Positions 2,890-63,132 of a stretch of 64,000 bases of DNA are shown here, piece after piece. The position numbers and the translations under genes are program-made. Each line of letters starts with the position of its first letter. Positions within the stretch are counted from its first letter, which is position 1. The notes beneath the pieces were generated by a model. It saw only the letters and a program-made list of their open reading frames with translations. It was not told the origin of the DNA and ran no database searches. This stretch comes from a virus. The stretch is taken from IMG/VR virus record IMGVR_UViG_3300037141_000177, positions 9,972-73,971 of that record; one strand, 5' to 3'.

Positions 2890-3708
2890 ATGAAAAGGTG
2901 TTGTGACTGCAATTTAGACTTGCCACGCGAAAACTTTTCAAAGCGATCTGTCGCGAAGGATGGCCTGAAGCCGTGCTGTAAGTCTTGCGACAGCGCTTAT
3001 ATGCGCGCGCGGCGGATCGCTGATCCCGAAGGAGAGCGCCTTCGAGTTAACACCTATCGGTTAGCCAATGACGCGAAGGTAAAAGCGCGGAAAAAGGTGA
3101 GCTACGATCTTGCAGACCCAATTGTCCGTAAGGAAAAGGGCCGCGCATATTACGAGGCTAACAAAGAGGCGCTGGCCGTGCGACAGCGCGCCTACGCCGT
3201 AAAAAACGCAGTGACCGTCGCAGCGGGCCATGCCGCCTACTACCGGCAAAACAAGGCTCGCCTCATCGCGCATGGCGCCGCCTATAACAAAACAAACCCT
3301 GACGTCCGCAAGCGCGCGCAATCAAACTATTCTGAAAAGAATCGTGTTTCTATAAGTGCGAAAGGTGCCGCCTACAGGCGCGCCAATCCGGAGAAGAATT
3401 TCGAACGCGGACGAAAGTGGCGGCTCGCAAACAACGCGCTGGTTAATTCCTACGGGATTCAGAGGCGTGGAATGCGGCTGAAGCGGACTTTGCTTCACGA
3501 TGCTGAGTTACTTGGTCTGGTCGTGCGCGAAGGCTATGACGTAGCCCTTCTCCGCGAGGCAGCGACTGGCATCAAATGGGAGCTTGATCATACCGTCCCG
3601 CTTCAAAGCAAGCTCGTATCGGGGCTTCACAACGAGCACAACCTGCAGGTCATTACCCGTTTCGAGAACCGCAGCAAATCAAACCGTCATTGGCCTGATA
3701 TGCCATAA
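2890..3708 (+). CDS. HNH homing endonuclease
   Basis: N-terminal CxxC..DGL...CKxC, basic repeats, C-terminal DHTVPL..GLH..HNLQVI...N..K.N; appears less GC-rich than flanks. Confidence 0.85.
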   Translation: MKRCCDCNLDLPRENFSKRSVAKDGLKPCCKSCDSAYMRARRIADPEGERLRVNTYRLANDAKVKARKKVSYDLADPIVRKEKGRAYYEANKEALAVRQRAYAVKNAVTVAAGHAAYYRQNKARLIAHGAAYNKTNPDVRKRAQSNYSEKNRVSISAKGAAYRRANPEKNFERGRKWRLANNALVNSYGIQRRGMRLKRTLLHDAELLGLVVREGYDVALLREAATGIKWELDHTVPLQSKLVSGLHNEHNLQVITRFENRSKSNRHWPDMP

Positions 3709-3724
3709 GTCGTGACGCCATGCT
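3709..3724 (+). promoter_or_regulatory. Putative late promoter motif GTCGTGACGCCATGCT
   Basis: Immediately after the HNH stop, upstream of the tail fibre gene. Confidence 0.65.
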
Positions 3725-9508: not shown

Positions 9509-10000
9509 ATGCTTTCGTTTCTAGTTGCCCATTGGGGCCTGTTGCTGGGCGGTGGCGGGGTTCTCGCCGCTGTGGTGGGCCTGTGCGTGCTGGTCGGTCC
9601 TGCGGTGCTGCTGGCGCGCTGGCGGCTCGTCTTAGGCGGCGCAGTGGTGCTCGTGGCCGGGGCGACAGTCGTGTATCTGTGGCTCGCGCTCGAGGCGACG
9701 ACCGCGAAGCTCATCGTCGCGCAGGCGAACTACGCCACGGTCACCGGGCAGAACGTCACCCTTAACGCCGATAACAAGAACCTGGCGGCGCAGACCCTCT
9801 TGCAGAGCAAGTCGATCCAGCTTGTCGCCGATGGTGCGCGGGAGGCCAAAACTGCGGCCGACGCTGCGCTGGCCACCGCCGTCGCGCAGCAGTCCGTCGA
9901 CCAGTCCAGCATCGTCGCGCTGCAGGCACGCATGAAGGATCCCAAAACCAACGCGGGGAGCTGTGATGACGAGATCGCTCGTATTCGGTCCACTTTGTAG
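9509..10000 (+). CDS. i-spanin (Rz-like)
   Basis: N-terminal transmembrane helices, coiled coil, C-terminal Cys; follows the endolysin. Confidence 0.7.
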   Translation: MLSFLVAHWGLLLGGGGVLAAVVGLCVLVGPAVLLARWRLVLGGAVVLVAGATVVYLWLALEATTAKLIVAQANYATVTGQNVTLNADNKNLAAQTLLQSKSIQLVADGAREAKTAADAALATAVAQQSVDQSSIVALQARMKDPKTNAGSCDDEIARIRSTL

Positions 10001-43340: not shown

Positions 43341-43356
43341 GTCGTGACGCCAAGCT
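43341..43356 (+). promoter_or_regulatory. Putative late promoter motif GTCGTGACGCCAAGCT
   Basis: Upstream of the terminase-small-like gene. Confidence 0.65.
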
Positions 43357-45911: not shown

Positions 45912-47345
45912 GTGACTTTTAGCGCGATCACCTTCGGCTCAGTGTGTTCGGGCATTGAAGCGGCGAGTGTGGCGTGGGTTCCGCTTGGCTGGCGCGCGGT
46001 GTGGTTCGCGGAGATAGACGCGTTCCCGTCCGCGGTGCTTGCGCATCGGCATCCGTCGGTGCGGAACCTGGGGGATATGACGCTGCTGGTGGCACGCGTG
46101 CAGTCGGGGGAGATTGAGGCGCCCGACGTCCTGGTGGGCGGCACACCGTGTCAGGCGTTCTCGCTGGCGGGGCTTCGTGCTGGTTTGAATGATCCACGCG
46201 GTCAGCTTGTGCTGCGGTTTTTGGAATTGGCAAATGCAATTGACGCAGCTCGACTTGTTCTCGGAAAGCCCGCGTGTGTCGTCGTCTGGGAGAACGTCTA
46301 CGGCGTGCTCAGCGACAAGACCAACGCCTTCGGATTCTTACTTGGTGGGCTGGCCGGCGAAGATGTTCCACTTGAGCCGCCAAGGGACGCCCGTGGCCTG
46401 AGAAAGCCTTGGTCGCACGCTGGTGCTGTGTATGGACCCCAAAGAGCAGCGGCATGGCGGCTCCTCGACGCCCAATATTTCAGAGTGGCACAACGACGCC
46501 GCCGTTGTTTCCTTGTGGGCAGTGCTCGAGCGGGGTTCGATCCAGCGAAGGTACTTTTTGACTTCGAAGGCGTGCGCCGGGATTCTCCGCCGAGCCGAGA
46601 TGCGGGGGAAAACGTTACCGGCACTCTTAGCGCGCGCACTTCAGCAGGTGGCGGACTTGGGACCGACTTTGAACTAGCCGGTGGCCTGCAGGTGTGCTCG
46701 CCGGTCGTGTGCCTGGCGCACGGGCAGGGAGGGGCCGAGGTGTCGGAGGACCGGTCGCCGACGCTCACCTGCAACCACGAGGCACCGATCGCCGTGTATG
46801 CGTTCCAGCCGCGCATCGCGCGCAATGGTCGGGGCGATATGGGCGAGCTCGTCAATGCGTTGACGGCCACTGCTGGCGAGACGGGCAAGGGTGATGCTGC
46901 GCCGTGCGTCGCACTCGCGTTCAAGGCTTCGCACTTCACGCGCGGTAAGGATGGCGCTCCGTCTGAGGTCTGTCCGCCGCTGTCGGCCGACGCCGACAAG
47001 GGCGATCAGGACACGCTGGTGTGTGCGCCCACGGGGATCGCCTTCGACGCCCGTCAAGACCCGGTTTCAAACGATCACGTCGCAGGCGCGCTCGGCTCAT
47101 CCAGCCCGCAATCGCAGGCCGTGTGCGTCGCCGGAGGCATGGCGGTGCGTCGTCTCACGCCGGTCGAGTGCGAGCGGCTTCAGGGATTCGCGGACGGCTA
47201 CACAAACGTTCCGTACCGCGGCAAGCCTGCTGCGGACGGTCCGAGATACAAGGCGCTTGGCAATTCTATGGCCGTGCCGTGCATGGCCTTTCTTGGGCGC
47301 CGCATCGCGGTCGCTATTGGTGAGCTTATTCGGGAGCACGCATGA
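45912..47345 (+). CDS. DNA C5-cytosine methyltransferase
   Basis: SVCSGI, GGTPCQAFS, WENV, QRRRR.F, RRLTP.ECERLQGF, RYKALGNS. Confidence 0.93.
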   Translation: MTFSAITFGSVCSGIEAASVAWVPLGWRAVWFAEIDAFPSAVLAHRHPSVRNLGDMTLLVARVQSGEIEAPDVLVGGTPCQAFSLAGLRAGLNDPRGQLVLRFLELANAIDAARLVLGKPACVVVWENVYGVLSDKTNAFGFLLGGLAGEDVPLEPPRDARGLRKPWSHAGAVYGPQRAAAWRLLDAQYFRVAQRRRRCFLVGSARAGFDPAKVLFDFEGVRRDSPPSRDAGENVTGTLSARTSAGGGLGTDFELAGGLQVCSPVVCLAHGQGGAEVSEDRSPTLTCNHEAPIAVYAFQPRIARNGRGDMGELVNALTATAGETGKGDAAPCVALAFKASHFTRGKDGAPSEVCPPLSADADKGDQDTLVCAPTGIAFDARQDPVSNDHVAGALGSSSPQSQAVCVAGGMAVRRLTPVECERLQGFADGYTNVPYRGKPAADGPRYKALGNSMAVPCMAFLGRRIAVAIGELIREHA

Positions 47346-47624
47346 GAACGATCTACAAGTACCCGCTCGAGCGCGGCGTGACTCGCCTCGATGTTCCGCC
47401 TGGTTCGACGCTGGTGTCGGTTGACATACAGAACGGCGAGCCGATTGGCTGGGTGATGCACGACCGGGAGCGTCTGCAGGCGAAGGAGCGCGAGGCGATC
47501 ATCGTGACTATCGCGCGTACGGGTGGCGACATACCTCGGGAGTGCGGAAGCTATCTGTCGACGTTTTTCGAGCACGGCGGGCTGTACGTGTGGCACGCGT
47601 TCGCCCATTACGAAGGGCCGGTGA

Positions 47625-48992
47625 ATGGCTGATATCTCGATGCCGACCGCGCTGGTGATGCGTAACGTCGCGGACCTGTTGCCGTATGCGAGGAATGCCA
47701 GAACGCATTCGGATGAGCAGCTGGCGCAGATCGTCGCGTCGATGACCGAGTTTGGCTTCACGAACCCGATCCTCGTCTCCGGTGACGGGATCCTCGCGGG
47801 GCACGGTCGGATTCTAGCGGCCGAGAAGCTCGGGCTGACGGTGGTGCCGACGATCGACCTGTCGCATCTGTCCGAGACGCAGCGGCAGGCGTACGTGCTC
47901 ACTGACAACAAGATCGCGCTCAATGCGGGATGGGATCTCGACATGCTGCGCGTTGAGCTGGAGGAGCTGGAAGCGAAGGGGTTTGATCTGTCGATCACGG
48001 GCTTCGGCGCGGACGAGCTCGAGGAGCTCCTGCATCCGGATCTGGAAGCGCCTGGTGGTGATCCGGACGAAGTGCCGGAGACGCCCACGGTCGCGCACTC
48101 GGTGCTTGGCGACGTGTGGATTTGTGGCGCGCACAAGGTCATGGTTGGAGATGCGCTGTCGGTCGATGCCTGGGACGCGCTGATGGGCACGGAGAAGGCG
48201 GACGTGGTGTGGACGGACCCGCCGTACAACGTTGATTACGAGTCGAAGCTGGCCGGGAAAATCAAGAACGACAAGATGGGCGACGGTGCCTTTCATGAGT
48301 TCCTGCTGGGTGCCTTTGTGGCGCTGTTCACGGTCATGAAGTCGGGTGCGGCGATCTATATCGCGCATGCCGATACGGAGGGCTACAACTTCCGCAGCGC
48401 CTTCCTGAAGGCCGGGTTGAAGCTGTCGGGTTGCCTCATCTGGAAGAAGAACACGCTGGTCCTCGGGCGTAGCCCGTACCAGTGGATCCACGAGCCGATT
48501 CTGTACGGATGGAAGCCGGGAAAAGCGCACCGATGGTTCGGCGGCCGCAAGCAAACGACGGTCACGGATTTAGGCGATGCGTCGCCGTTCGAACTGCAGC
48601 CCGACGGTCGCTGGGTGGTGCGCGTCGGTGAGGAGACGCTTGTCGTGTCCGGCGATGCGCTGGTGGAGCGCGTTGAGACATCGCTGATCTATCACGACAA
48701 GCCTGCGCGCTCGGCACTTCATCCCACGACGAAACCGGTCGGACTTGTCACTCGTCTTTTGAAGAATTCCGCGCGTCGCAACGACATTGTGGTCGATGCC
48801 TTTGGCGGTTCCGGCACGACCTTGATCGGCTCTGAAATGGTCGGCATGTGCGCGCGCCTGATGGAGCTTGACCCTCGCTTTGTCGACGTGACCTGCGCTC
48901 GTTACCTTGCCTACACGGGCCGCGTGCCGGTGAGTGCGGTGACCGGTCTGGAATTCCCGCGCGGCGTGCTCGAGCGGCTTAACGCCAAGTAA
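47625..48992 (+). CDS. ParB-like domain fused to an N6-adenine methyltransferase
   Basis: PY.RNAR.H, FGFTNP, AGHGR; TDPPYNV, HPT.KP, D.FGGSGTT. Confidence 0.9.
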   Translation: MADISMPTALVMRNVADLLPYARNARTHSDEQLAQIVASMTEFGFTNPILVSGDGILAGHGRILAAEKLGLTVVPTIDLSHLSETQRQAYVLTDNKIALNAGWDLDMLRVELEELEAKGFDLSITGFGADELEELLHPDLEAPGGDPDEVPETPTVAHSVLGDVWICGAHKVMVGDALSVDAWDALMGTEKADVVWTDPPYNVDYESKLAGKIKNDKMGDGAFHEFLLGAFVALFTVMKSGAAIYIAHADTEGYNFRSAFLKAGLKLSGCLIWKKNTLVLGRSPYQWIHEPILYGWKPGKAHRWFGGRKQTTVTDLGDASPFELQPDGRWVVRVGEETLVVSGDALVERVETSLIYHDKPARSALHPTTKPVGLVTRLLKNSARRNDIVVDAFGGSGTTLIGSEMVGMCARLMELDPRFVDVTCARYLAYTGRVPVSAVTGLEFPRGVLERLNAK

Positions 48993-49874: not shown

Positions 49875-50537
49875 ATGATTGATACCTACGCGCCAAACAC
49901 GAACGGGCGTGACTTCATTGTGGGCGATCTGCACGGCTGTTTCTTGACGCTCGAGCAAGAGATGGAGTCGGCGGGTTTCGATACGGACCACGACCGGCTG
50001 TTTTCAGTTGGCGACCTGGTGGATCGTGGCCTTGAGTCGGAGCGCGCGCTGGAGTTCATTGACGAGCCGTGGTTCCACCCGGTGCGCGGCAATCACGAGC
50101 AGATGGCGATCGACTATCTCTGTGGGCGAGTCAGCGGCAGCGACTATGTGCGAAACGGCGGGGCCTGGTTCATCGGCATGCCGAAGGTGGAGCAGCAGGA
50201 CTATGCGGTGGCGTTTCAGATGATGCCGCTCGCGATTGAGGTTGATCTCGGGCGCTGTCGCATCGGCATCGTGCATGCGGATTGTCCTGTCGAAAATTGG
50301 GCCGACCTCGAGGCGGCGCTCAATGGTCCGAACCGGGACATGTTCGAAGAGTGGATGTTGTGGAGCAGGGCGCGGTACGACGAACGGCGCGCGGATGGCG
50401 TGAAAGGCATCGACACGGTGTTCGTTGGGCATACGGTGGTCCCTGCTGGCTTTCGGCTGGGGAACGTCGCCTACATCGACACAGGGGCCGTGTATGGGCG
50501 CGAGTTGACGCTGCTGAATCTGAGCGCACTGCCATGA
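49875..50537 (+). CDS. Ser/Thr protein phosphatase (lambda NinI-like metallophosphoesterase)
   Basis: GDLHG, GDLVDRG, RGNHE, GHT, IDTGA. Confidence 0.92.
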   Translation: MIDTYAPNTNGRDFIVGDLHGCFLTLEQEMESAGFDTDHDRLFSVGDLVDRGLESERALEFIDEPWFHPVRGNHEQMAIDYLCGRVSGSDYVRNGGAWFIGMPKVEQQDYAVAFQMMPLAIEVDLGRCRIGIVHADCPVENWADLEAALNGPNRDMFEEWMLWSRARYDERRADGVKGIDTVFVGHTVVPAGFRLGNVAYIDTGAVYGRELTLLNLSALP

Positions 50538-53124: not shown

Positions 53125-53406
53125 TCACTTGCCTTCGGGGCGACGTGCCTTGCTAAGCATGGCATCTCGAAGAATGTCGTTCAGGCGGCTCTGATAGCCC
53201 TTGCCTTGGCTCTTGAGCCATTCCAGTACGTCGGCGTCGATACGCACCGTCAATTGTTGTTTGACGGGTCGATAAAACCTGCCGCGCGTGGCTCCCTGCC
53301 AGTCCTGCGCGTTGGTCGCCGGGATGTCGGAGAAGTCGATCTCAGATTCCGGTTTCGCGGCCAACGCTGCGAGTTCGCGGCGAATTGATTCAGGCACCTT
53401 GTTCAT
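53125..53406 (-). CDS. brnA: BrnA antitoxin
   Basis: IDFSDIP, YRPVK.Q.T.RIDADVLEWLKSQGKGYQ.RLN.ILR. Confidence 0.9.
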   Translation of the reverse strand: MNKVPESIRRELAALAAKPESEIDFSDIPATNAQDWQGATRGRFYRPVKQQLTVRIDADVLEWLKSQGKGYQSRLNDILRDAMLSKARRPEGK

Positions 53407-53686
53407 AAATTTTCCTTTCTTGCTTAGTCGCACGTCGCGCCGAGATGATGCGGATGTGTTCCTCGCCGCTCTCTGCTTCGTACCATGTGTGAGCTACTAA
53501 AAGCAGGACGACGTCGCCTGCCATGCCAACGGTCTGCCACCGTGCTTCGCCGTTCTCGATGCGATCCTGCCGTGAGACGTGCAGGGGGTCATCGAACACA
53601 AGGCTGGCGGCTTCAAAACTGACGCCGTGGTTGCGCTGGTTGCTCTTGTTTTTGGCGGCGTCCCATGAAAACAATTTTAGCTCCAT
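53390..53686 (-). CDS. brnT: BrnT ribonuclease toxin
   Basis: F.WD..KN..N...HGVSFE.A..VF.DP, E.RW, IRIISARRAT..ER..Y. Confidence 0.92.
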   Translation of the reverse strand: MELKLFSWDAAKNKSNQRNHGVSFEAASLVFDDPLHVSRQDRIENGEARWQTVGMAGDVVLLLVAHTWYEAESGEEHIRIISARRATKQERKIYEQGA

Positions 53687-53760
53687 ATTTGTAGTTACAA
53701 TAGTGTAGCTCTAATTTGGTCAAAGTTCAACGGCCGGTTAAACGCCTGAAAGCCTGTGCC

Positions 53761-53776
53761 GTCGTGACGCCAGACT
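53761..53776 (+). promoter_or_regulatory. Putative late promoter motif GTCGTGACGCCAGACT
   Basis: Upstream of tagged protein 1. Confidence 0.65.
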
Positions 53777-53801
53777 CGAATGAACATATTCGGGGTATCT
53801 G

Positions 53802-54902
53802 ATGGCTCACGCACTTTCCAGCTTCTCGCGCCCGTTGCTGTTCCTGAAGGCCGCGATGCATCAGGTGTACGTCCCGACCTTCTCGCGTGCCGACGGTGTG
53901 GTGGTGAACGGCCATTACGCGATGCATGCTGCTGGCGGCAACAGGCCGCCTGCGCTGAAGGTGGTTGCTGCGGTGGCAACCCCTGCGCCTGTTCGGAGCG
54001 GTGGCCACGACGCGATCGTGGGGCATTTGGAGGCGATTGCTGCGGCCAAGCTGCCCGCGTCGAATACGAATGCCAAGTCAGTGAACCCGCGGCTTGACGT
54101 GATCGCTGCGGCGCTGAAGTCGGGCGACCCGGGGCTGCTCACGATGATGTCGTACGGTTCGAACAACTACGGGGTCAAAGCCGCGAAGCTGGCGAACCTG
54201 GCGCTCGAGGCGCTTGGCTCGGACGAGCGGGTGTCGCCGGGGCAGAAGGGCGTTCCCGGGTACCGCTCGGATGCACAGGCGGCGGCAGCGAAGGCGCGCG
54301 CCCATGCCGAGCGCACGGTTCATCCGTCGCAAGATAGCCTCATGACGGCGATGGCGAAGCTTGGTGGTGTCAAAAAGTCCGAAGCTATGAAACAGTGGGG
54401 CTACGGCAAGAACGATCTGAAGGGCGCTTACGTGGGCATCAAGCCGGTGTTTTCTTCGCAGGGGTTGAGCGTTGAAAACATGGGCGCGGCGCTGCACGAG
54501 CTGGGCTATCTGCGCAGCGACGAGCATGGGCGCTTCGACGGTCGCGAGCTGGAGGAGCACGTTTCGAATGCGCTTGGCGGTGCCGATCACTTCACGCCGG
54601 ACGGGTTCGTCAACAAGGCGCAGCAGGACCAAGAGGAGCAGTATCAGGGCCTTGGTGCGAGCGACGTAAAGGCGAGCGGCTTCGATGAATTGCCTGAAGA
54701 GGCACAACAACAGATTGAGGAATTCCTTGATGAAAACCCCGACTTCTCAGCCGACGAAATTGCCAGTTTCGAAGGTGCTCAGCGAGTGGCAGACGAGGAT
54801 GACGTCCCGTTTGAGCCACTTGACTTCGGCGCAGCGCAAGGCCACCACCGCGACTTTGGTCAACCTCATGAAAGCTCGGGCGGCAGCGACGTCCCGTTCT
54901 AA
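53802..54902 (+). CDS. Putative virion-packaged protein 1 (LFLKA tag, shared helical domain, acidic tail ending DVPF)
   Basis: N-terminus and an ~80-aa domain are paralogous to 54972..59381. Confidence 0.6.
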   Translation: MAHALSSFSRPLLFLKAAMHQVYVPTFSRADGVVVNGHYAMHAAGGNRPPALKVVAAVATPAPVRSGGHDAIVGHLEAIAAAKLPASNTNAKSVNPRLDVIAAALKSGDPGLLTMMSYGSNNYGVKAAKLANLALEALGSDERVSPGQKGVPGYRSDAQAAAAKARAHAERTVHPSQDSLMTAMAKLGGVKKSEAMKQWGYGKNDLKGAYVGIKPVFSSQGLSVENMGAALHELGYLRSDEHGRFDGRELEEHVSNALGGADHFTPDGFVNKAQQDQEEQYQGLGASDVKASGFDELPEEAQQQIEEFLDENPDFSADEIASFEGAQRVADEDDVPFEPLDFGAAQGHHRDFGQPHESSGGSDVPF

Positions 54903-54931
54903 GCCGGAATAAACCGGCTGCTTGTCTCCGC

Positions 54932-54947
54932 GTCGTGACGGTAGCCT
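54932..54947 (+). promoter_or_regulatory. Putative late promoter motif GTCGTGACGGTAGCCT
   Basis: Promoter and leader nearly identical to 53761-53810. Confidence 0.65.
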
Positions 54948-54971
54948 CGAATGAACACATTCGGGGTTCTC

Positions 54972-57900
54972 ATGGCTCACCTGCACGCTCTGTCCAGTCT
55001 CTCGCGCCCCCCGCTGTTGTTCCTCAAAGCGACGCAGAAAAAGCGGGTGTTCGTTCCTACGTTCACGCGGCGAAATGGCGTGGTCGTGCAGGGACATTAC
55101 GCGATGGTGCATGTCTCCGATGCGCACGACGCTCACAAAATCCTGTCGGGTGAGGGATCGCATTCGCAGAAGGCTGCGCACGCGAAGCTCGTTAAAAAAG
55201 ACTGGTTCCAGGCGTTGCCGCATGACCACCAGCTGCCCGTCCTGCTCGAGCACGCGACCGAGATTCAGGATAAGGCCAGCGCCGGTTCGGTCCTGTCGAC
55301 GCTCAAGAAGAAGGTTCTCGCAGGGCAGAAGCCGTCAAACGCTGAAATGAACGCGTTTGCCGCGGCGCCGGGGGATAAGCAGAAGGCGTTGCTGGGCGAG
55401 TTCACTGCGGGCGGGAAGGGGGCATCGTTTGGCGCGTTGTTTCATCAGCACGCGGCGTCGGTGCCCAAAGTTGCAGAAGTGCCCGCAGTTATGCAACAAG
55501 AGCCTGCGGTGACTGTGGTAGCTGCTCCGGTGCCGGTCGCGCCGAAGGTTGTCGGGGCCACGCAGGCGGCGCCACCTCCTGCGGTGCCGGTGCAGGCTTC
55601 CACGCCCGAATGGAGCGACGAGAAGGGGGCGATCGCCTTGCACCTCGACGCCATCGATAACGCGAAGCTGCCTGATTCGAACACCAACGCCGCGTCAGCG
55701 AATAAGAAGCTGCAGGCCATTGCAGCCGCGACGGCCAAGGGCGACGTGAAGTCGCTTTTGATGATGGGTTACGGGTCGAACAATTACGGCGCGACGGCGG
55801 CGAAGCTCGCCAACCAGTCGTTGGCGCTGCTCGGTTCCACGCATCAGGTGTCCGCTGGCCAGAAGATGGCGAGCCACCCGGGGATGAGCGGAGCGCCTGC
55901 TACGCCGACGGTGGTTCCCACTTCTCCTACCGGGGAAAGCGGGAAAAGCGGGGAAACCGGGATTCCCGCGTCTCCCGCGCCGGCTGGCATTACCACAAAG
56001 CTGAAGCTCGACGGCCACAGCGTGGAGATTGCGCCGGTTGCCGGTGGCAAGTTCTCACTGTCGATCGACGGCACGAAGGAGGGTGAGTACGCGTCGCCTG
56101 GCGCGGCTCAGGCGCACGCACACGAGGTTGTCTACGAGAGCGAGCCGGCCGCGCTCACGCCGACCGTGGTGCCCACGCCTGGTGTTGCAGCCCCAGCGAA
56201 GGACTCGGCAGCGGTCAAGAAGGCGAAGGCGATCGATCCGGCAAAGGTCAGCGCGTGGCTTGCGGCGGTGCCAGGCAAGGCAGACACGTCGCTGTTCGAC
56301 GGTGTTTCGACGAAGGCGAAGGACAAGTTTTTAAAGTGGAAGCAAGCGGTAGGCAAAACGCACATGCCGGAATACAAGGCAGGCTACGTGAATGTCGCCG
56401 TGTCGTCGCTGTATGGGATGACCGATCAGGTGCTGCTGAACAATGGTTCGTTCGTTGCCGTCACCGATATCCTGATGCACGGTGGCTGGGGGCAGGTCGC
56501 GCCGGCCGATCCCGTCGCGATCCAGAAGGCGGCGATCGCGGCTTTGTCTGGCGTGTCGACACCCACAGTCGCGGCTGTGCCTGTCGCGCCAGTTGCGGCC
56601 AAGCCGGTCACAGCGGGACTGCCGCCCATCCCGCTCGGTATCAAGCAGGCGCAGGGCGTGAAGGCCATGAAAATGGCGAAGCTGGGGGACGTCGCGGGGC
56701 TGACGAACCTCCACGACAAGCTGGTCGCGCCGAAGACGAAGGCGTACGTTGGCGAACTGCTCGCGGCTATCAAAAAGGCGCAGGGCGTCTCCGCCGCTGG
56801 CGCCTCGGTTGCGAACTGGGAATTTAACAGCTCTGATCATGGCTTTAGTGGCGCTCCGACGCTGTATCTGAAGAAGGAGGGCGTCGATCACTTCATCGTG
56901 AAAACGCCCGAAGGCGAGTACGAGGTCTACGGCATCGGCTCGGGTGATCAAGAGACGGCCGGCGACGAACCGGAGATATTCGGTTCGAAGGAAGATGTGC
57001 AGGAGTATTTGTCGGGCGCACTTGATGTTCACGTCACGAAGGCGACGCTCGCGAAGCTCGACAGCGGTGCTGATGCTAGTCCGAAGGAAGGCGACACGAA
57101 GCAGGGCGCAGACGGCGCGCTGGTGTTCCAGAACGGGCGCTGGCACAAGCAGGGCGACGTGCTCCCGGTGGTGCCCGTCGCTGTGTCGAAGGCCAAGGTC
57201 ACGCAGCACGTCTATACGAACACCGAGGAAGGTCACAACAAGTTTTGGGCCACTGCAGTCCAAGGCAGTATTTTGCGCACCACGTACGGGAAGATCGGCA
57301 CGAAGGGTTCAGAGACGATGAAGCTTTTCGCGTCTGAAATGCAGGCGTATGAGGCTCAGGCGAAACTGATCAAGGAAAAAACTGCCAAGGGTTACAAGTT
57401 TCAGGATTCCGTCTCGGTGGAGGGCTTTGCGCCTGCTCAGGCGGCTCCGGTCAAGGTAGTGGGCGCTACGGCTGGGAGTGGCTTCGCGATCCCGCCCAAG
57501 CCGACGCCTACCGTCCAGGTGACGCCGAATGCCGGACCGGCCGCGCCAGTGTCGATTGACGCCTGGAAGAAAACGGGCGAGCAGGGCGGCTACAACGAGG
57601 GCGGCACGTACGTGGATCCGCAGGGCGTCGCCTGGTATTGCAAATTCCCGGCCGGCGGTGAAAAGGTCGCGAAGAACGAACTGCTCGCCGGGAAGCTGTA
57701 CGAGCTCGCCGGGGTGGATGTCGCCGCGGTGAAGTTGATCACGCAGGGCGGGAAGGTCGGACTCGCCTCGAAGATCGTCGTGGGCGCGGCGCCGAGCAAG
57801 GCGGCGATGCTCGCTGGCACGGCGCCCGGGCTGCTGTCGGGCTTTGCCGCCGATGCTTGGCTTGCCAATTGGGACGCGGTGGGGAACAACCCGCAGAAGG

Positions 57901-59381
57901 GGTACGACAACATCCTGATCAAGCCGGACGGCTCGGCGGTGCGCATCGATGCGGGTGGTGCGTTGCTTTACGGGGGAGCTGGCGGGAAAAAGCAAACCTT
58001 CACGGACAAGGTGACGGACCTGAAGACCATGCTCGACCCGGCGAAGAACGCACACACGTCGAAGGTGTTCGGGAAAATGACGCCGGCGGATATCGCGGCG
58101 TCGGTGGCGAAGGTCGCGGCCATCGATCCATCGATGATTGCGGCGGTGGTGGAGATGTATGGCCCGGGCAACGGTGAGGAACGCGCGCGCATGGCGGCGA
58201 AGCTGATCGCGCGACAGGCTGACATGCTTGAGCAGTACCCGGCCGCGAAGAAGGCCGCAGAGAAGGCTCAGGCGAAGGCTCCGAAGCCCAAGGTGGAGAA
58301 GCCTGACCCGACGAAGCTGAAGGTTGACGCGTCGCTGTTGCCGCCGATGCACAACTTCATGAACTGGAATGGTTCGGGGAAACCCATTTCAGACAAGCCG
58401 TATGTGGCGCAAAACATCATTGACGAGCAGGCCATTCTCGCGTTCGCGTTGAAGGGAAACCTGGTCGCGTTGAAGGCGTACAAATACCAGCCGGTCGACA
58501 AGCTCACGGGCCAGCCGCTCGGTGAGCCGAAGTCGATGGACCAGAACCCGTCGCAGTACGTGCGCGAGTTCTACGACTCGTGCGTGTCGTTCCTCGAGGT
58601 GGTGGCGAACCCTGCGGAGCCGATGCGCACGTATGACTCGAAAGACGCGCATACCGTCGCGCAGCTTGCGTCGATGTTCAAGCCGTTCGACTACGGTGTG
58701 TCGGTGGCCAGCGCGCCGGCGAACCAGCGGCTCGGCTTCTGGATCGCGTTGGGGGTGGCGAGCAGCCCCGCCAAATTCAAGCCGAAGACGGTCAGCCTGA
58801 AGTTTACGGAGGCCGCGAAGCAGGCGGCATATACGGCCTATACCCTGCTTCCGAAGACGGTTAAAACATTCATCAATGCGGTGCAGTCGTCGGGTTCGGC
58901 CAACCAGCCGTATCGCGACGGTAAAGAAGTCGATCAGCAGGGGCAGAACACGCGCACGGTGCTCGCTGACCTGTACACACACGCTGTTGCGCACGAGGCG
59001 GGGACGACGGTCAACAAGTGGATCAATATGCCCGATTCGATGGTGGCGCAGTTCATCGCGGAGCCGGAGGGCCTGGTGTTCCAGAACCCGGGTTCGATGT
59101 GCACGTCGCAGCACACGTCCAAAACCGCTAATTTCGGCAAGCACCGGGTCATCATCCACTATGCGGACGGGGCCTCTGCGATTGACACGTTCGGCTCGGG
59201 CGATCATCACGGGGAGGCGGAAATCACGACGCTCCCGGGCGCCCGGTATATGGTGTTGAGTCGGAAGATGGTCGCGGACGCCGAACACAGCAATCCGGGC
59301 GCGCAGCGGCTCGAGCTTGAAGTGTTGATGCTGCCGCCGGATGCGACGTATATTGCCAACATTCCCAAGAAGCCAACATGA
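54972..59381 (+). CDS. Large polyvalent protein: LFLKA tag, WGR domain, HipA/PI3K-like kinase, ADP-ribosyltransferase
   Basis: WGR ~57200-57400 (HNKFW..YGKIGTKG..EK..KGY); kinase ~57560-58235; ART ~58990-59340 (MCTS, GEAEI). Confidence 0.7.
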   Translation: MAHLHALSSLSRPPLLFLKATQKKRVFVPTFTRRNGVVVQGHYAMVHVSDAHDAHKILSGEGSHSQKAAHAKLVKKDWFQALPHDHQLPVLLEHATEIQDKASAGSVLSTLKKKVLAGQKPSNAEMNAFAAAPGDKQKALLGEFTAGGKGASFGALFHQHAASVPKVAEVPAVMQQEPAVTVVAAPVPVAPKVVGATQAAPPPAVPVQASTPEWSDEKGAIALHLDAIDNAKLPDSNTNAASANKKLQAIAAATAKGDVKSLLMMGYGSNNYGATAAKLANQSLALLGSTHQVSAGQKMASHPGMSGAPATPTVVPTSPTGESGKSGETGIPASPAPAGITTKLKLDGHSVEIAPVAGGKFSLSIDGTKEGEYASPGAAQAHAHEVVYESEPAALTPTVVPTPGVAAPAKDSAAVKKAKAIDPAKVSAWLAAVPGKADTSLFDGVSTKAKDKFLKWKQAVGKTHMPEYKAGYVNVAVSSLYGMTDQVLLNNGSFVAVTDILMHGGWGQVAPADPVAIQKAAIAALSGVSTPTVAAVPVAPVAAKPVTAGLPPIPLGIKQAQGVKAMKMAKLGDVAGLTNLHDKLVAPKTKAYVGELLAAIKKAQGVSAAGASVANWEFNSSDHGFSGAPTLYLKKEGVDHFIVKTPEGEYEVYGIGSGDQETAGDEPEIFGSKEDVQEYLSGALDVHVTKATLAKLDSGADASPKEGDTKQGADGALVFQNGRWHKQGDVLPVVPVAVSKAKVTQHVYTNTEEGHNKFWATAVQGSILRTTYGKIGTKGSETMKLFASEMQAYEAQAKLIKEKTAKGYKFQDSVSVEGFAPAQAAPVKVVGATAGSGFAIPPKPTPTVQVTPNAGPAAPVSIDAWKKTGEQGGYNEGGTYVDPQGVAWYCKFPAGGEKVAKNELLAGKLYELAGVDVAAVKLITQGGKVGLASKIVVGAAPSKAAMLAGTAPGLLSGFAADAWLANWDAVGNNPQKGYDNILIKPDGSAVRIDAGGALLYGGAGGKKQTFTDKVTDLKTMLDPAKNAHTSKVFGKMTPADIAASVAKVAAIDPSMIAAVVEMYGPGNGEERARMAAKLIARQADMLEQYPAAKKAAEKAQAKAPKPKVEKPDPTKLKVDASLLPPMHNFMNWNGSGKPISDKPYVAQNIIDEQAILAFALKGNLVALKAYKYQPVDKLTGQPLGEPKSMDQNPSQYVREFYDSCVSFLEVVANPAEPMRTYDSKDAHTVAQLASMFKPFDYGVSVASAPANQRLGFWIALGVASSPAKFKPKTVSLKFTEAAKQAAYTAYTLLPKTVKTFINAVQSSGSANQPYRDGKEVDQQGQNTRTVLADLYTHAVAHEAGTTVNKWINMPDSMVAQFIAEPEGLVFQNPGSMCTSQHTSKTANFGKHRVIIHYADGASAIDTFGSGDHHGEAEITTLPGARYMVLSRKMVADAEHSNPGAQRLELEVLMLPPDATYIANIPKKPT

Positions 59382-59854
59382 CGCCTGACAACCCTGAATT
59401 CTCGCCCACGGGCCTGTACCTCGACGATCTGGTGTCGACGGGCAAGCCGTCGCTGGGCGTTTTCCCGATCGTCTCGCGGATCGTTCGCGAGTACGTCAAG
59501 AACGTGCTCGAGATTCGGAGCGCCTTCAATTTGGGGCAGGGCGGGGCGGATGCGCCACTGGTCGAGATCGAAGCTGCCGCGCGGCATTGGGGCAACGTGT
59601 TCCTCGGGCGCGACAACCGGTTCGATGCGCAGCCGTGGAATACCCCTAACCGGCTTGGCATGACGCTGACCATGCTGTTCCCGGAGGAAACCAAGCATTA
59701 CGGCGACCCGGGCGCAGCGGCGTTCATGTGGCTTGCAGGGCAAACCCTGCAGGCTTCGCAGTTTATGGAGGGTGGCGGCTCGGAAGACGAAGCGCGCGCG
59801 AAGCTCGAGCCGGTAGTGGAGGACTTCGAGCAACGTCTGATAGGGATCAAATAA
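59378..59854 (+). CDS. Hypothetical protein translationally coupled to the ART gene (candidate immunity protein)
   Basis: ATGA overlap with the upstream stop; acidic, 158 aa. Confidence 0.5.
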   Translation: MTPDNPEFSPTGLYLDDLVSTGKPSLGVFPIVSRIVREYVKNVLEIRSAFNLGQGGADAPLVEIEAAARHWGNVFLGRDNRFDAQPWNTPNRLGMTLTMLFPEETKHYGDPGAAAFMWLAGQTLQASQFMEGGGSEDEARAKLEPVVEDFEQRLIGIK

Positions 59855-59860
59855 AGGCGG

Positions 59861-59876
59861 TTCGTGATGCTACATT
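59861..59876 (+). promoter_or_regulatory. Degenerate late promoter motif TTCGTGATGCTACATT
   Basis: Same spacing as the other copies, upstream of tagged protein 3. Confidence 0.5.
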
Positions 59877-59905
59877 GGGGAGAACTAGCCAATTAGGTGT
59901 CACGA

Positions 59906-61603
59906 ATGTCCGCACCCGTCCTGTTTCTGAAGGCTCACGTCAAGACGTTCACTCGCAAGGACGGGGTGGTCGTGCAAGCGCACGAGACGAAGGTGAACGC
60001 CAAGGGCAAGCCTGCCGCGGCTCCCTTAAAGTCGAAAATTGCGCAGTGGGCGGGCTGGAACACGAAGGCACCGCTCGATCTCGGCACCGCCACGGTGGCC
60101 GTAGACCATATTCCCGAACCCAAGAAGAAGGTTGCGGCCAAGCCGACCGGCTGGCCGTTCGTCGACGAGCAGGTCAAACCCGAACCCAAAGCTTCGAAAG
60201 TGGTTAGCGCCAAGTACGGCGCTGGTGCCGCTCGTGGCAAGCAGAGCGGTCTGTTCGGGTCAAGCTACGGGAAAGGGGCTTACCCGAACGCGATCACCCA
60301 TCCCCAGCGCGGCGAGGGCGGTAAGCCCGTCAAGGTCAACGAGCCGTCTGCGGCGTCCGACGCGGCGACGTGGAGCGATCCTGCGGCTGTCGCCGTGTTC
60401 GTTCCCGGTGGCGATGCGCCGGCGGTGCTGAACGGCGTGGCGCTCGCGCCGTGGCTCGACCATCCGAAAACGCTCGAGGGCTGGGATCTGGTGCCCGGGC
60501 AAATGGACGACCTGGTTGAGCCGGATATGGTCCTGAAGGGCAAGGAGCCTGCGGCCGGGGTGGTGATTGAGGAGGCGGACGGGCGCATATGGATGGTCAA
60601 GCCGTCGAATGGCTTCGCGGGTTACGTCACCACGTTTCCGAAGGGCCACGCCGATGACGGTCTGTCGATGCAGGCTACGGCGATCAAGGAGGCATTCGAG
60701 GAATCCGGCATGCAGGTGGAAATCACCGGCTTGATCGGGGACGTTGAGCGCGGCCAGACCATGACTCGCTACTACCGTGCGCGCCGTGTGGGCGGCTCGC
60801 CGACGGCGATGGGGTGGGAGTCGCAGGCGGTGGTTCTGGCGCCGCCCGGGGCGGTCCACGGCGAGCTGAACCGGCAATACGACCGCACGGTCGCCTCGCT
60901 CGCGGGTATCACTTCTCCGGAGGGGCTGGTGGAGACAGCGGACGATTGGGAAAAGACGGGAAAGAACACCGGCACAAACCCGGGGGGCTTCTATACAGAC
61001 CCGGCTGGCGAGCACTGGTACGTCAAGGTGCCGAAGTCGACGGCTATCGCGAAAAACGAGGTGCTCGCCGCGAAGCTATACGAAGCGGCGGGGGTGACGG
61101 TGCCCGAGTTGAAGCACGTCACGCTGGGCGGAAAGATGGCGATTGCCTCGCAGATCATTCCCGGCCTCTCGAAGCTGAAGCCGGGAGCCGACGTCGCGGG
61201 GGTGATGGACGGCTTCGCGGTTGACGCGTGGCTCGCCAATTGGGATGTGGTCGGGCTTGAGCACGACAACCTCCTCGAGGACGTGCTCGGGCAGGCGGTG
61301 CGCGTCGACGTGGGCGGCTCGCTGCTGTTTCGCGCGCAGGGCGAGCCGAAGGGTAAGGCGTTTGGGCACGAGGTGGGCGAGCTCGACACGCTCACGAGCG
61401 GCAAGAACCCGCAATCCGCCTCGGTGTTCGGGGGGATTACGCACGACGAGCTGATGGCGGGCGTGGCAAAGGTCGCCTCGGTACCGGTGGACACCATTCG
61501 GGCCGCGTGCGAGACGTACGGTCCGGGGACTGCCAAACAGCGCGTGGCGCTCGCCGATACGCTGATTGCTCGCCGGGAATATTTGCTTAATCTGCAACAA
61601 TAA
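59906..61603 (+). CDS. LFLKA-tagged Nudix hydrolase plus HipA/PI3K-like kinase
   Basis: Nudix box PKG.....L.......KEA.EESG (60644-60709); kinase 60941-61590 paralogous to the one in the large protein. Confidence 0.75.
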   Translation: MSAPVLFLKAHVKTFTRKDGVVVQAHETKVNAKGKPAAAPLKSKIAQWAGWNTKAPLDLGTATVAVDHIPEPKKKVAAKPTGWPFVDEQVKPEPKASKVVSAKYGAGAARGKQSGLFGSSYGKGAYPNAITHPQRGEGGKPVKVNEPSAASDAATWSDPAAVAVFVPGGDAPAVLNGVALAPWLDHPKTLEGWDLVPGQMDDLVEPDMVLKGKEPAAGVVIEEADGRIWMVKPSNGFAGYVTTFPKGHADDGLSMQATAIKEAFEESGMQVEITGLIGDVERGQTMTRYYRARRVGGSPTAMGWESQAVVLAPPGAVHGELNRQYDRTVASLAGITSPEGLVETADDWEKTGKNTGTNPGGFYTDPAGEHWYVKVPKSTAIAKNEVLAAKLYEAAGVTVPELKHVTLGGKMAIASQIIPGLSKLKPGADVAGVMDGFAVDAWLANWDVVGLEHDNLLEDVLGQAVRVDVGGSLLFRAQGEPKGKAFGHEVGELDTLTSGKNPQSASVFGGITHDELMAGVAKVASVPVDTIRAACETYGPGTAKQRVALADTLIARREYLLNLQQ

Positions 61604-61621
61604 TTGTGCGTTAGCCGCAAA
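61604..61621. promoter_or_regulatory. Putative operator TTGTGCGTTAGCCGCAAA
   Basis: Matches TTnTGCG-N6-GCAA, upstream of the rightward small-ORF operon. Confidence 0.55.
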
Positions 61622-61704
61622 TAAAGACACGCGGAAACGGTTTTTGTGGGGATATGGATGGCAGTATGCATTCGTCAACTTCCCCACCAAACCGAGGTTT
61701 CCCC

Positions 61705-62076
61705 ATGTGGATCTGTCTGAATCAAGCGTTTCTCTCCATCGTTTCAAACCCTGCCGACAAAGCCACGCTGCTCGTGCGCGCTCGCCGTGTTGGCGACCTC
61801 GAGCATGTGTTCGGTGCTGACACGGTGGTCACCACGATCCCGGGCCGCGACTATCAATTCCGCGCGTTCCTGCCGCGTGAGCAGGTGGGTCGCGTCATCG
61901 CCGCAAACGTGGAGATGATCTCGTATCCCAACTTCAAAAGCTCGGTGAAGGACGACTCGCTGCATGACGCGTACATGGCGATTTGGCACGTCATGGCCGA
62001 TCTGCAACCGACGGCTCCCTATGCCGATGCGCCCCGCAAGAATTTTCGTAAGCATCCTGTTCGGACAACGCGATGA
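61705..62076 (+). CDS. Conserved hypothetical protein
   Basis: MWI....FLSIV, LLVRAR..GDL, DY.FRA, YPNFK..V, HDAY..W; GAGG RBS. Confidence 0.65.
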   Translation: MWICLNQAFLSIVSNPADKATLLVRARRVGDLEHVFGADTVVTTIPGRDYQFRAFLPREQVGRVIAANVEMISYPNFKSSVKDDSLHDAYMAIWHVMADLQPTAPYADAPRKNFRKHPVRTTR

Positions 62077-62314
62077 AAACCGGCCTCGGCTTCTCGACGC
62101 GATTCACCTTCGAGTGGACATACGACGGCGATGAAACGTTCGAGCATGAGCAGGTGACGCTCGAAGCCCCTGATGTATGGGCGGCTTGGCGGCGTCTCGC
62201 AGGGCAACTCATCAACGTTGCCGAAGGTTCGCGCGTTCCGCTTAACGTGAGGCTTCTTGACACTCCCGACGCGGTCGCGGCACCGCTTAAAACGCGGACA
62301 AAGGGAGCGGGAAA

Positions 62315-62557
62315 ATGAAAGACTGCCCGTTCTGCCGCAACCCGCTAAATCCGGGTGCCACAGCGTGTGGCCACTGCGGTTCGTTTCTGCGAATCAGCAC
62401 GCTTAGCTCGGTGCGCAAATTGGTTGCCCTCGTTTGGATTCTGTTCGGTCTGTTCCTTACGTGGGCGCTTTTCCCGGCACCGCTCGGCCCGATCATTCTC
62501 GTCTTGTCGCTCATCGTGTTTGTCATTCCGTCGAAAGTTGGTTGGACCAAGCATTAA
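62315..62557 (+). CDS. Zinc-ribbon membrane protein
   Basis: CPFC..C.HCG followed by two transmembrane helices. Confidence 0.55.
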   Translation: MKDCPFCRNPLNPGATACGHCGSFLRISTLSSVRKLVALVWILFGLFLTWALFPAPLGPIILVLSLIVFVIPSKVGWTKH

Positions 62558-62598
62558 GCCTCTCGCTGCACCGACACTCAAAACCACAAGGATTCGCC

Positions 62599-63132
62599 AT
62601 GTCGATTTATACCGCTACGAAAATCAAAACGTTTGAAGGGATGGAAGGGCGCGGTTACAACGCGACGCTCCTGCGCGATGGAAAGCCCGTAGCAGAGGTC
62701 ATTGACGACGCGAGCGGCGGCGGCACGATGTTCCACTGGCTGGACCGCGATGCGAAAGCCGTGGTGCGCACGGTGAACCACAAGGACGAGCCGCACGAAT
62801 ACAACGGCACGGTCGAGGAGGCGATGTTCGTCGCCTACTGCCTCACGCTGCCGAAGTGGACGTATAGCGGGATGACGTCGTTCCAGTCGACGGACATGGT
62901 GGTCGATGGCTTGGTGAATGCGGTCGAAACGGAGAGGCGTCTGAAGCGCCAGTTCAAGACGAAGCTGGTTTTCGTGGATGGTGGGCAGGAGTACTCCTAC
63001 GGTTCGAAGACGAAGGGCGTCGATCCGCTGACGCTGGTGGACGGCCTGAAGCGCAAGCGTCCGACCGCCGTGATCCTGAACCTGCTTCCGCTGGAAGAAG
63101 CGGTCCGCATGTCGCTCGCACAGGGGGAGTGA
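62599..63132 (+). CDS. Hypothetical phage protein
   Basis: AAGGA RBS; G.NA.L..DGK.VA.V.DD..GG motif. Confidence 0.55.
   Translation: MSIYTATKIKTFEGMEGRGYNATLLRDGKPVAEVIDDASGGGTMFHWLDRDAKAVVRTVNHKDEPHEYNGTVEEAMFVAYCLTLPKWTYSGMTSFQSTDMVVDGLVNAVETERRLKRQFKTKLVFVDGGQEYSYGSKTKGVDPLTLVDGLKRKRPTAVILNLLPLEEAVRMSLAQGE

Follow-up and report, generated by a model that had tools for sequence, protein, structure and literature searches.

The first minutes of a phage infection are decided by proteins that are injected together with the DNA and, to our knowledge, apart from T4 Alt and the N4 virion polymerase few of these have been characterised. T4 Alt, an ADP-ribosyltransferase (ART) of the R-S-E type, is packaged in the head and ejected along with the DNA, and it modifies host proteins as infection begins. 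Polyvalent proteins, which are very large and multidomain, bring unrelated enzymes together, vary in architecture and are encoded with virion genes, are predicted to be packaged and injected, and their protein-modifying domains include ARTs and kinases (Iyer et al. 2017, PMC5512222). Published candidates or routes for packaging in the head and ejection include fusions to MuF or to the portal, polyvalent proteins, and ART and Nudix enzymes (PMC5512222, PMC5576092, PMC9503650). The subject here is a large protein, P0001, encoded in a stretch of viral DNA of 64,000 nucleotides (positions 9,972 to 73,971 of the IMG/VR virus record IMGVR_UViG_3300037141_000177; the whole stretch is referred to below as the window). 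P0001 is a chain of modules on Ala/Pro-rich linkers, ending in an invariant pair of enzyme domains, an atypical protein-kinase-like domain and an ART. It is probably a polyvalent effector that is packaged in the head, ejected, and phosphorylates and ADP-ribosylates host targets.

By analogy, P0001 appears to resemble T4 Alt and T7 Gp0.7 combined in function, and the polyvalent proteins of Iyer et al. in organisation. With T4 Alt it shares an R-S-E-type ART, which here, too, may be carried in the virion, and a putatively late gene adjoining structural genes, the late assignment here being taken from the neighbouring genes. It differs from T4 Alt in having Lys in place of Arg, a fused kinase with many further modules, and a different leader, and the likeness in sequence is at the level of motifs only. 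The kinase of Iyer et al. (PMC5512222) is missing its C-terminal subdomain entirely and carries a conserved His, whereas that of P0001 is CtkA/HipA-like, with a full helical C-lobe and a D-x4-N loop; the ART here is VIP2/C3-like, and the WGR domain, which P0001 also carries, has 0 occurrences in their study. The MuF polymorphic toxins (Jamet et al. 2017, PMC5576092) are similar in that MuF head proteins of other lineages carry the same kinase, ART and Nudix domains, and in that a short open reading frame (ORF) follows the toxin-type gene. P0001, however, has a short N-terminal leader instead of a MuF domain, and the pair of enzymes in it is conserved rather than polymorphic. This kinase is a candidate identity for 'Ct_MAD', an unnamed domain of the MuF proteins (PMC5576092). 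The conserved cargo of an unnamed atypical kinase and a toxin-type ART, its Nudix-kinase companion and the leader that they share have not been described.

Searched with the C-terminal 610 residues of P0001, a large protein database gives over 350 relatives, many of them on contigs of 85-95 kb. For 120 relatives the architecture was recorded with an iterated profile for each module. Every one of the 120 has the kinase-ART pair at its C-terminus, while modules A, B and D are repeated and shuffled from one relative to another. Several unrelated enzyme domains are found in one very large phage protein of variable architecture, and accessory modules that vary around a conserved enzyme cargo mark a polyvalent protein, not a fixed sensor-enzyme unit. 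The Ala/Pro/Lys-rich linkers described in the original prediction, which had been drawn from the sequence of the window, are present and are rich in Val as well (the fraction of Ala, Pro, Val and Lys is 0.41-0.70 in six linker stretches). The motifs of module D also lie where it had placed them (PKEGDTK at 57081-57101 and NGRWH at 57132-57146). A megablast search against phage records returned no match, and the sole match of P0001 in PHROGs is its WGR region.

The nearest isolated phages with a homologue, all of them of 86-95 kb, are Aeromonas phage ST4, the Pseudomonas phages Jeremy, Dolphis and Touem01, two enterobacterial phages, Morganella phage Mecenats66 and Yersinia phage fHe-Yen8-01. 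The kinase-plus-ART type of effector is widespread and so far undescribed. The statement that a PARP-like logic is not known from phages was too strong, as homologues occur in isolated phages, some of them annotated as ADP-ribosyltransferases, and the concepts of polyvalent effectors packaged in the virion and of packaged ARTs and Nudix enzymes have been published (PMC5512222, PMC9503650).

The kinase domain had been proposed from its motifs, all of which are in place: WYCK (residues 888-891), KNELLA (901-906), DAWLANWD (961-968), DNIL (979-982) and RIDAG (991-995). The AlphaFold2 (AF2) model of residues 860-1095 has a pLDDT (predicted local distance difference test) of 94.5 and a bilobal kinase fold. 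Its best structural match is CtkA (3akj; VIA-align Z 15.8 over 207 residues, 3.3 A), and other VIA-align matches are PI4KIIalpha (Z 13.2), CotH (13.1), MavQ (13.1) and HipA (12.0). Foldseek agrees, at E 4e-7. Domain alignments were built from related viral loci. K891, E903, D961, N966 and D993 do not vary among 110 relatives, nor among 73 sequences of the domain drawn from many lineages; in the 110 relatives D968, D979 and N980 are likewise invariant, and the Gly-rich loop GGxNxGG is invariant or nearly so. The order of the motifs suggests that these residues provide the ATP-binding Lys and its partner Glu, the catalytic D-x4-N, and the metal-binding Asp (in RIDAGG, the equivalent of DFG). Because the Gly-rich loop and the catalytic residues are invariant or nearly so, the domain looks like an active kinase and not a pseudokinase. 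A reading of the enzyme domains as a pseudokinase or a pseudo-ART was rejected, all catalytic positions other than one Arg/Lys column of the ART being invariant in the 110 relatives.

With CtkA of Helicobacter pylori and with HipA, the domain shares the D-x4-N catalytic loop, the metal-binding Asp of DxG, the Lys-Glu pair and the helical C-lobe. It differs from them in its sequence (12-17% identity), in a signature of its own (GGxNxGG, DAWLANWD and DN), and in being embedded in giant phage proteins. When six separate pieces of P0001 were compared with Pfam at E up to 10, no match was obtained for the kinase or for the N-terminal modules; HipA_C, PI3_PI4_kinase and similar profiles gave none in residues 860-1100 even at E 10. 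Among 30 distant relatives of the kinase, one matches HipA_C (E 1e-5). Against PDB sequences, the kinase profile gave insignificant matches only (LepB and HipA, at E ~0.6). Among 1.84 billion cluster representatives (50% identity), 5,772 match the kinase domain at E <= 0.001, and 3,050 at E <= 1e-30. The 150 best-scoring matches are mostly proteins of 700-7,000 residues, some with several copies of the domain. The kinase is therefore a very common family that is unnamed and has no Pfam model. No description of it in phages, nor of a combination of WGR, ART and kinase there, was found in the literature searched, work following up Ct_MAD included. Five kinase stretches were seen in a single polypeptide of 3,416 residues (P0128), and three in another of 7,004 residues (P0145).

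Over its last ~190 residues, the AF2 model of the ART module (residues 1100-1469, pLDDT 91.7) matches C3bot2 (VIA-align Z 13.6 over 172 residues, 3.0 A), CPILE-a (13.0) and VIP2 (12.6), as well as C3stau2 and Certhrax, and every one of the top 19 matches is an R-S-E ART or an ART-fold toxin domain. The match to VIP2 in Foldseek has E 5e-8. In sequence, the profile of the ART family matches VIP2 at E 0.0017, with the YRW, MSTS and ExE of VIP2 aligned to the three motifs TVNKW (residues 1346-1350), MCTS (1376-1379) and GEAEI (1414-1418), which lie where they had been placed. In the second motif S1379 is invariant (110/110), the first Ser of S-T-S being replaced by Cys throughout the family; in the third, on the ARTT loop, E1415 and E1417 are both invariant (110/110) and align with E-K-E of VIP2. 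ExE signatures go with arginine-specific protein modification in characterised ARTs. Structure prediction, which had been proposed as a check, was thus run for both enzyme domains; each model matches the fold expected of it and, with the conserved motifs and the profile matches, the assignments as an atypical kinase and an R-S-E ART are borne out.

The catalytic, NAD-contacting Arg is not present in P0001. Its place, in the column aligned with Y-R-W of VIP2, is taken by K1349, as the original prediction had noted; among the 110 relatives, 81 have Arg in this column and 29 have Lys. At least two changes of state are needed on the kinase-ART tree, and P0001 belongs to a clade of 13 members with 100% local support, all of which have Lys. 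Therefore, Lys is a retained state, not a recent lesion, and the domain is a natural Arg-to-Lys variant of the ART active site that has been kept in two clades.

This domain has its fold in common with VIP2, C3 and iota-toxin Ia (Z 12.6-13.6 over 172-182 residues), and it shares with them ExE and the way in which the three motifs are ordered and spaced. The differences are Y-K-W instead of Y-R-W, M-C-T-S instead of M-S-T-S, and an extra subdomain of ~170 residues before the core, for which no convincing VIA-align match (Z under 6, as modelled within residues 1100-1469) and no usable ESM Atlas match was obtained. Moreover, VIP2, C3 and Ia are secreted toxins, whereas the ART here belongs to a phage protein that is read as a virion protein. 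The ART piece gave a chance-level match to Endotoxin_M only, and none to ADPrib_exo_Tox, in Pfam at E up to 10. No related loci were found with the single ART sequence as query; the related viral loci were recovered with an alignment as query.

The term 'Alt-like', which had been applied to the domain, holds by analogy. In sequence the likeness stops at the motifs: hhalign of the family profile with T4 Alt gave E 0.025 and a probability of 1.9%, over 40 columns around the Y-R motif only, and a tblastn search of 50,697 phage records returned no T4-type match. Another explanation for the ART annotation of the homologues, namely a separate N-terminal ART, holds for one relative, P0094, which carries ART-PolyVal and ADPrib_exo_Tox; the conserved C-terminal domain is nevertheless an ART itself.

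The case for packaging begins with the leader at the N-terminus of P0001, which in this record is found in exactly three proteins, P0124, P0001 and P0122, and in no others. P0124 is a tandem paralogue of the N-terminus of P0001 (71% identity in the leader and 62% in module B by tblastn). The duplication also bears on where P0001 begins. An in-frame ATG occurs at 54951, 21 bases 5' of 54972, but over the 40 bases 5' of 54972 and through the first codons (ATGGCTCAC) the sequence nearly repeats that before the paralogue gene at 53802, and 54972 is therefore the likely start. Most relatives of P0001 open with one of two types of leader, type 1 or type 2 (RLLLLKS.KFAHQAGYYL.NGRWHK), of which the latter contains a module-D-like motif. 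The type-1 leader is also present on Nudix proteins of phages ST4 and fHe-Yen8-01, and these have no kinase; the Nudix-kinase fusion of P0122 was seen only in the clade nearest this phage (loci L003-L006, L013, L014, L017, L028 and L033). We infer that the leader is a virion-incorporation signal, from its sharing among these proteins.

In the GenBank record of fHe-Yen8-01, gp129, gp130 and gp131 are annotated as particle-associated. Of these, gp129 (2,146 residues) is the homologue of P0001, with 31% identity over the C-terminal 600 residues; gp131, the leader-Nudix protein, is 39% identical to P0122 (E 1e-66); and gp130 weakly resembles P0123 (E 0.008), the small protein encoded directly after P0001. 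No paper on fHe-Yen8-01 was found in the literature searched.

The kinase is associated with head proteins in other lineages, too. Among 30 kinase-bearing proteins from unrelated viral contigs, 24 have the head-morphogenesis domain MuF, 10 ADPrib_exo_Tox, 8 ART, 4 NUDIX and 1 WGR, in architectures such as MuF-kinase-ART and MuF-NUDIX-kinase-ART. In the predicted structures of BFVD, the kinase is found fused to an HK97-type portal, or inside proteins whose names refer to ADP-ribosyltransferase or Nudix but in no case to the kinase. One MuF-NUDIX-kinase protein (2,685 residues; L060:2367-10421, IMGVR_UViG_3300028602_002280) has its MuF domain split by an intein-like element with PT-HINT, Intein_splicing and a DUF559 endonuclease.

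With regard to expression, the operon is preceded by a motif, GTCGTGACGC, of which the window has 6 exact copies, all on the + strand, against 0.53 expected by chance. The copy at 3709 precedes a tail-fibre gene (3748), and that at 43341 a terminase-small-subunit-like gene. From these positions, GTCGTGACGC is a candidate for a phage-specific late promoter. A scan of 53300-62700 for sigma-70 promoters and terminators gave no excess over shuffled sequence.

On this basis, the following course of events may be proposed. The leader would direct the three operon proteins into the phage head, and these would be ejected with the DNA into the host. In the first minutes of infection, the kinase would phosphorylate and the ART would ADP-ribosylate host proteins, so that the separate activities of T7 Gp0.7 and T4 Alt would be united in the single polypeptide P0001. 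Its companion P0122 would act on nucleotides of the NAD or ADP-ribose type. WGR, like the other variable modules, would be a binding module, its ligand probably being nucleic acid (DNA of the phage inside the head, or DNA or RNA of the host). P0123 might hold the ART module, as a chaperone or an inhibitor, until delivery.

In this form the system is compact, with three proteins, a single shared leader as a candidate packaging signal, an Arg-to-Lys variant of the ART and a conserved small partner. If the targets are proteins of host transcription, translation or defence, it would be a new type of host take-over or anti-defence effector, and would also supply names for thousands of 'hypothetical' giant phage proteins. 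The kinase family is found mostly inside very large proteins, those of phages that were examined read as virion-associated, and it is repeatedly coupled to toxin-type ARTs and Nudix domains. A broader reading, which we put forward tentatively and consider rather less than probable, is that the kinase, the R-S-E ART and the Nudix enzyme form a recurrent guild of tailed phages that is co-delivered by way of MuF, a portal fusion or the new leader and acts jointly on one host pathway, the kinase family being dedicated to this role. Such action might be, for example, sequential phosphorylation and ADP-ribosylation of one target, or the dismantling of immunity based on NAD or ADP-ribose.

Several points weigh against P0001 being a packaged effector that modifies host proteins. 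The particle association is the annotation of a depositor, on a distant homologue (the 31% identity noted above), and the packaging of this phage's own proteins is supported indirectly. The role of the leader is drawn from its sharing and position only, with no cleavage site or head protease identified, and the late-gene assignment of GTCGTGACGC comes only from the genes that it precedes. The prediction of a complex between P0123 and the ART, described below, is weak support. With respect to the enzymes, the fold class of the kinase includes lipid and small-molecule kinases (PI4K, MavQ), and for this reason a protein is only a putative substrate. Replacement of Arg by Lys in C3- and iota-type toxins costs most of the activity; consequently, the ART of the Lys lineage may be weak or chemically altered.

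The breadth of the kinase fold class also bears on a different role, in which the kinase, ART and Nudix domains act mainly on small molecules derived from NAD or ADP-ribose, such as immune signals, or on nucleic-acid ends, and thereby counter host defence. The recurrence of the three together in several phage lineages and the direct fusion of the second kinase copy to Nudix are in line with such a role, and a part in countering signals based on ADP-ribose has been proposed for packaged Nudix enzymes (PMC9503650). The nearest structural relatives of the kinase (CtkA, HipA and CotH), however, are protein kinases, and the ART is nearest to protein-modifying toxins with ExE. We therefore regard this role as unlikely.

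The small protein P0123 invites a comparison with polymorphic toxins. Its homologues lie directly after the ART gene in 47 fetched loci, some of which are overlapping fetches of the same contig; a search of ESM Atlas with P0123 gave no usable match. The predicted complex of P0123 with the ART has a median score of 0.46, compared with 0.01 for the best control and 0.01 when the ART chain is replaced; its prediction runs agree in at least 37% of contacts, with a pLDDT of the partner of at least 76. Of 80 solved complexes, 58 reach the pass mark for such scores, as do 2 of 110 mismatched pairs. Passing scores of 0.60 or lower, however, are found in only 7 of the 80 solved complexes, yet in both of the mismatched pairs that pass. 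From this model, P0123 may bind the ART module.

A weapon of the polymorphic-toxin kind, with which lysogens would compete against non-lysogens or phages against each other and for which P0123 would be the immunity protein, would account for a small conserved ORF directly 3' of a toxin-type domain, as in MuF toxins (PMC5576092), and for the predicted contact. Relatives integrated in bacterial chromosomes (Microvirga lupini, on a 1.44-Mb contig, and Tardiphaga, on a 6.6-Mb contig) and the prediction of one relative, Touem01, as temperate (PMC11256456) are also in its favor. In P0001 and its relatives, however, it is the N-terminal modules that vary, whereas the C-terminal enzyme pair is conserved and not polymorphic. 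Furthermore, because the P0123 homologue of fHe-Yen8-01 is annotated as particle-associated, a co-packaged partner fits P0123 better than a cytoplasmic immunity protein does. A weapon of this kind is accordingly improbable.

The WGR domain of P0001, which had been recognised in the original prediction, is genuine. It matches Pfam PF05406 at E 5.7e-14 (52.4 bits, against a cut-off of 22), and the sole significant match of P0001 among PDB sequences is the WGR protein 2ra8 (E 1.7e-6). The eponymous W-G-R reads Y-G-K here. The domain is present in 42 of the 120 relatives and missing from 78, all of which keep the kinase-ART pair. It stands directly before the kinase in 22 of the 42 carriers; in the remainder it is 135-753 residues away, with other modules between. 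The kinase is invariably located between WGR and the ART.

The presence of WGR had led to the proposal of a nucleic-acid-activated enzyme with a PARP-like logic, in which WGR senses ends of DNA or RNA and activates the ART or the kinase, or the two together, by allostery. PARP1-3 likewise have WGR and ART in a single polypeptide. When present, WGR is often near the kinase (a gap of 16-53 residues in 24 of the 42 relatives), and its association with the kinase recurs, as it is found in one of the 30 unrelated kinase carriers. PARPs, however, belong to the H-Y-E clade of ARTs, and in PARP1 WGR acts on a helical regulatory subdomain, which P0001 does not have. The ART here is of the VIP2/C3 R-S-E clade, the kinase intervenes before it, and the coupling between WGR and a catalytic domain that would be expected of a PARP-like ART is not conserved. 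Since WGR is facultative and variable in position and the ART is of a different clade, the PARP-like proposal is not supported, and we consider it quite improbable. Binding of nucleic acid by WGR, if it occurs here, is most likely a tether and not a switch of the enzymes.

Finally, it is very unlikely that P0001 is not packaged at all and serves as a late-expressed cytoplasmic enzyme in the producing cell, acting for example on phage or host proteins during assembly: the indirectness of the support for packaging would allow it, but the shared leader, the three particle-associated homologues and the same kinase on MuF and portal proteins elsewhere all speak for packaging. Packaging and ejection of an effector directed at host proteins thus remains the preferred reading of P0001, and the features of the locus are listed in Table 1.

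Table 1. Features of the P0001 locus and its motif copies, in positions of the window.
Feature	Position	Strand	Remarks
GTCGTGACGC followed by cAgaCT, exact copies	2378, 3709, 7990, 31701, 43341, 53761	+	All before genes
Promoter-like motif GTCGTGACGC	53761..53770	+	41 bp before the first ATG of the operon
P0124, 366 aa	53802..54902	+	Leader, module B copy and very acidic C-terminal tail
Degenerate motif copy GTCGTGACGG	54932..54941	+	One mismatch; in the duplicated 5' leader region, before the large gene
Large polyvalent protein P0001	54972..59381	+	Stop-free translation, 1,469 aa
N-terminal leader LLFLKA..V..FTR.NGVVV.GH, ~45 residues	54972..55112	+	Sequence comparison
Module A, unassigned function	55107..55421 (aa 46-150)	+	In 43/120 relatives, sometimes repeated
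Module B, unassigned function	55644..55907 (aa 225-312)	+	In 95/120 relatives, up to 4 copies
Modules C (aa 410-545) and E (aa 561-690), unassigned function	56199..57041	+	Rare: 8/120 and 17/120 relatives
Module D, short PKEGDTK..G.LVFQNGRWH motif	57057..57167 (aa 696-732)	+	In 118/120 relatives, 198 copies
WGR domain, facultative accessory module	57213..57398 (aa 748-809)	+	Pfam PF05406
Atypical protein-kinase-like domain, CtkA/HipA/PI4K type	57549..58256 (aa 860-1095)	+	AF2 model, alignments, structure matches
Conserved subdomain before ART core, ~170 residues, mostly helical	58269..58775 (aa 1100-1268)	+	Model
ART core, VIP2/C3 type	58776..59339 (aa 1269-1456)	+	K1349 (Arg in most relatives), S1379, E1415-x-E1417
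P0123, 158 aa, no known family	59378..59854	+	Between the large gene and the Nudix gene
P0122, 568 aa: leader, NUDIX and second kinase copy	59897..61603	+	Pfam, sequence comparison
NUDIX domain of P0122	60545-60892 (aa 217-332)	+	Pfam E 8.8e-12
Second kinase copy, in P0122	60929-61600 (aa 345-568)	+	44% identity, E 1e-52

The IMG/VR record is 73,971 bp long and is estimated to be ~80% complete. The window is part of a ~90-kb myophage of the Dolphis/Mecenats66/ST4 type, and it also encodes baseplate, tail-fibre and tail-fibre-assembly proteins. Mecenats66 and Touem01 have been described as myoviruses (PMC9503643, PMC11256456).

Some further genes of the window may be mentioned. The acidic tail of P0124, with its runs of Asp and Glu and its aromatic residues, recalls DNA-mimic anti-restriction proteins; no family match was found for it. 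Upstream of the effector operon, at 45912-48992 (+), are a C5 cytosine DNA methyltransferase and a ParB-fused N6/N4 methyltransferase, and Aeromonas phage ST4 likewise has a C5 cytosine methyltransferase upstream of its homologue. A few kb upstream of both kinase domains, a NinI-like Ser/Thr protein phosphatase is encoded (49875-50537, +; PHROG E 1.2e-66, Pfam Metallophos), which could counteract or complement the kinases. Between the baseplate and tail-fibre genes there is an HNH or endonuclease VII-like ORF (2890-3708, +), with the GTCGTGACGC copy at 2378 located ~500 bp upstream, and this ORF looks like an inserted gene of the homing type.

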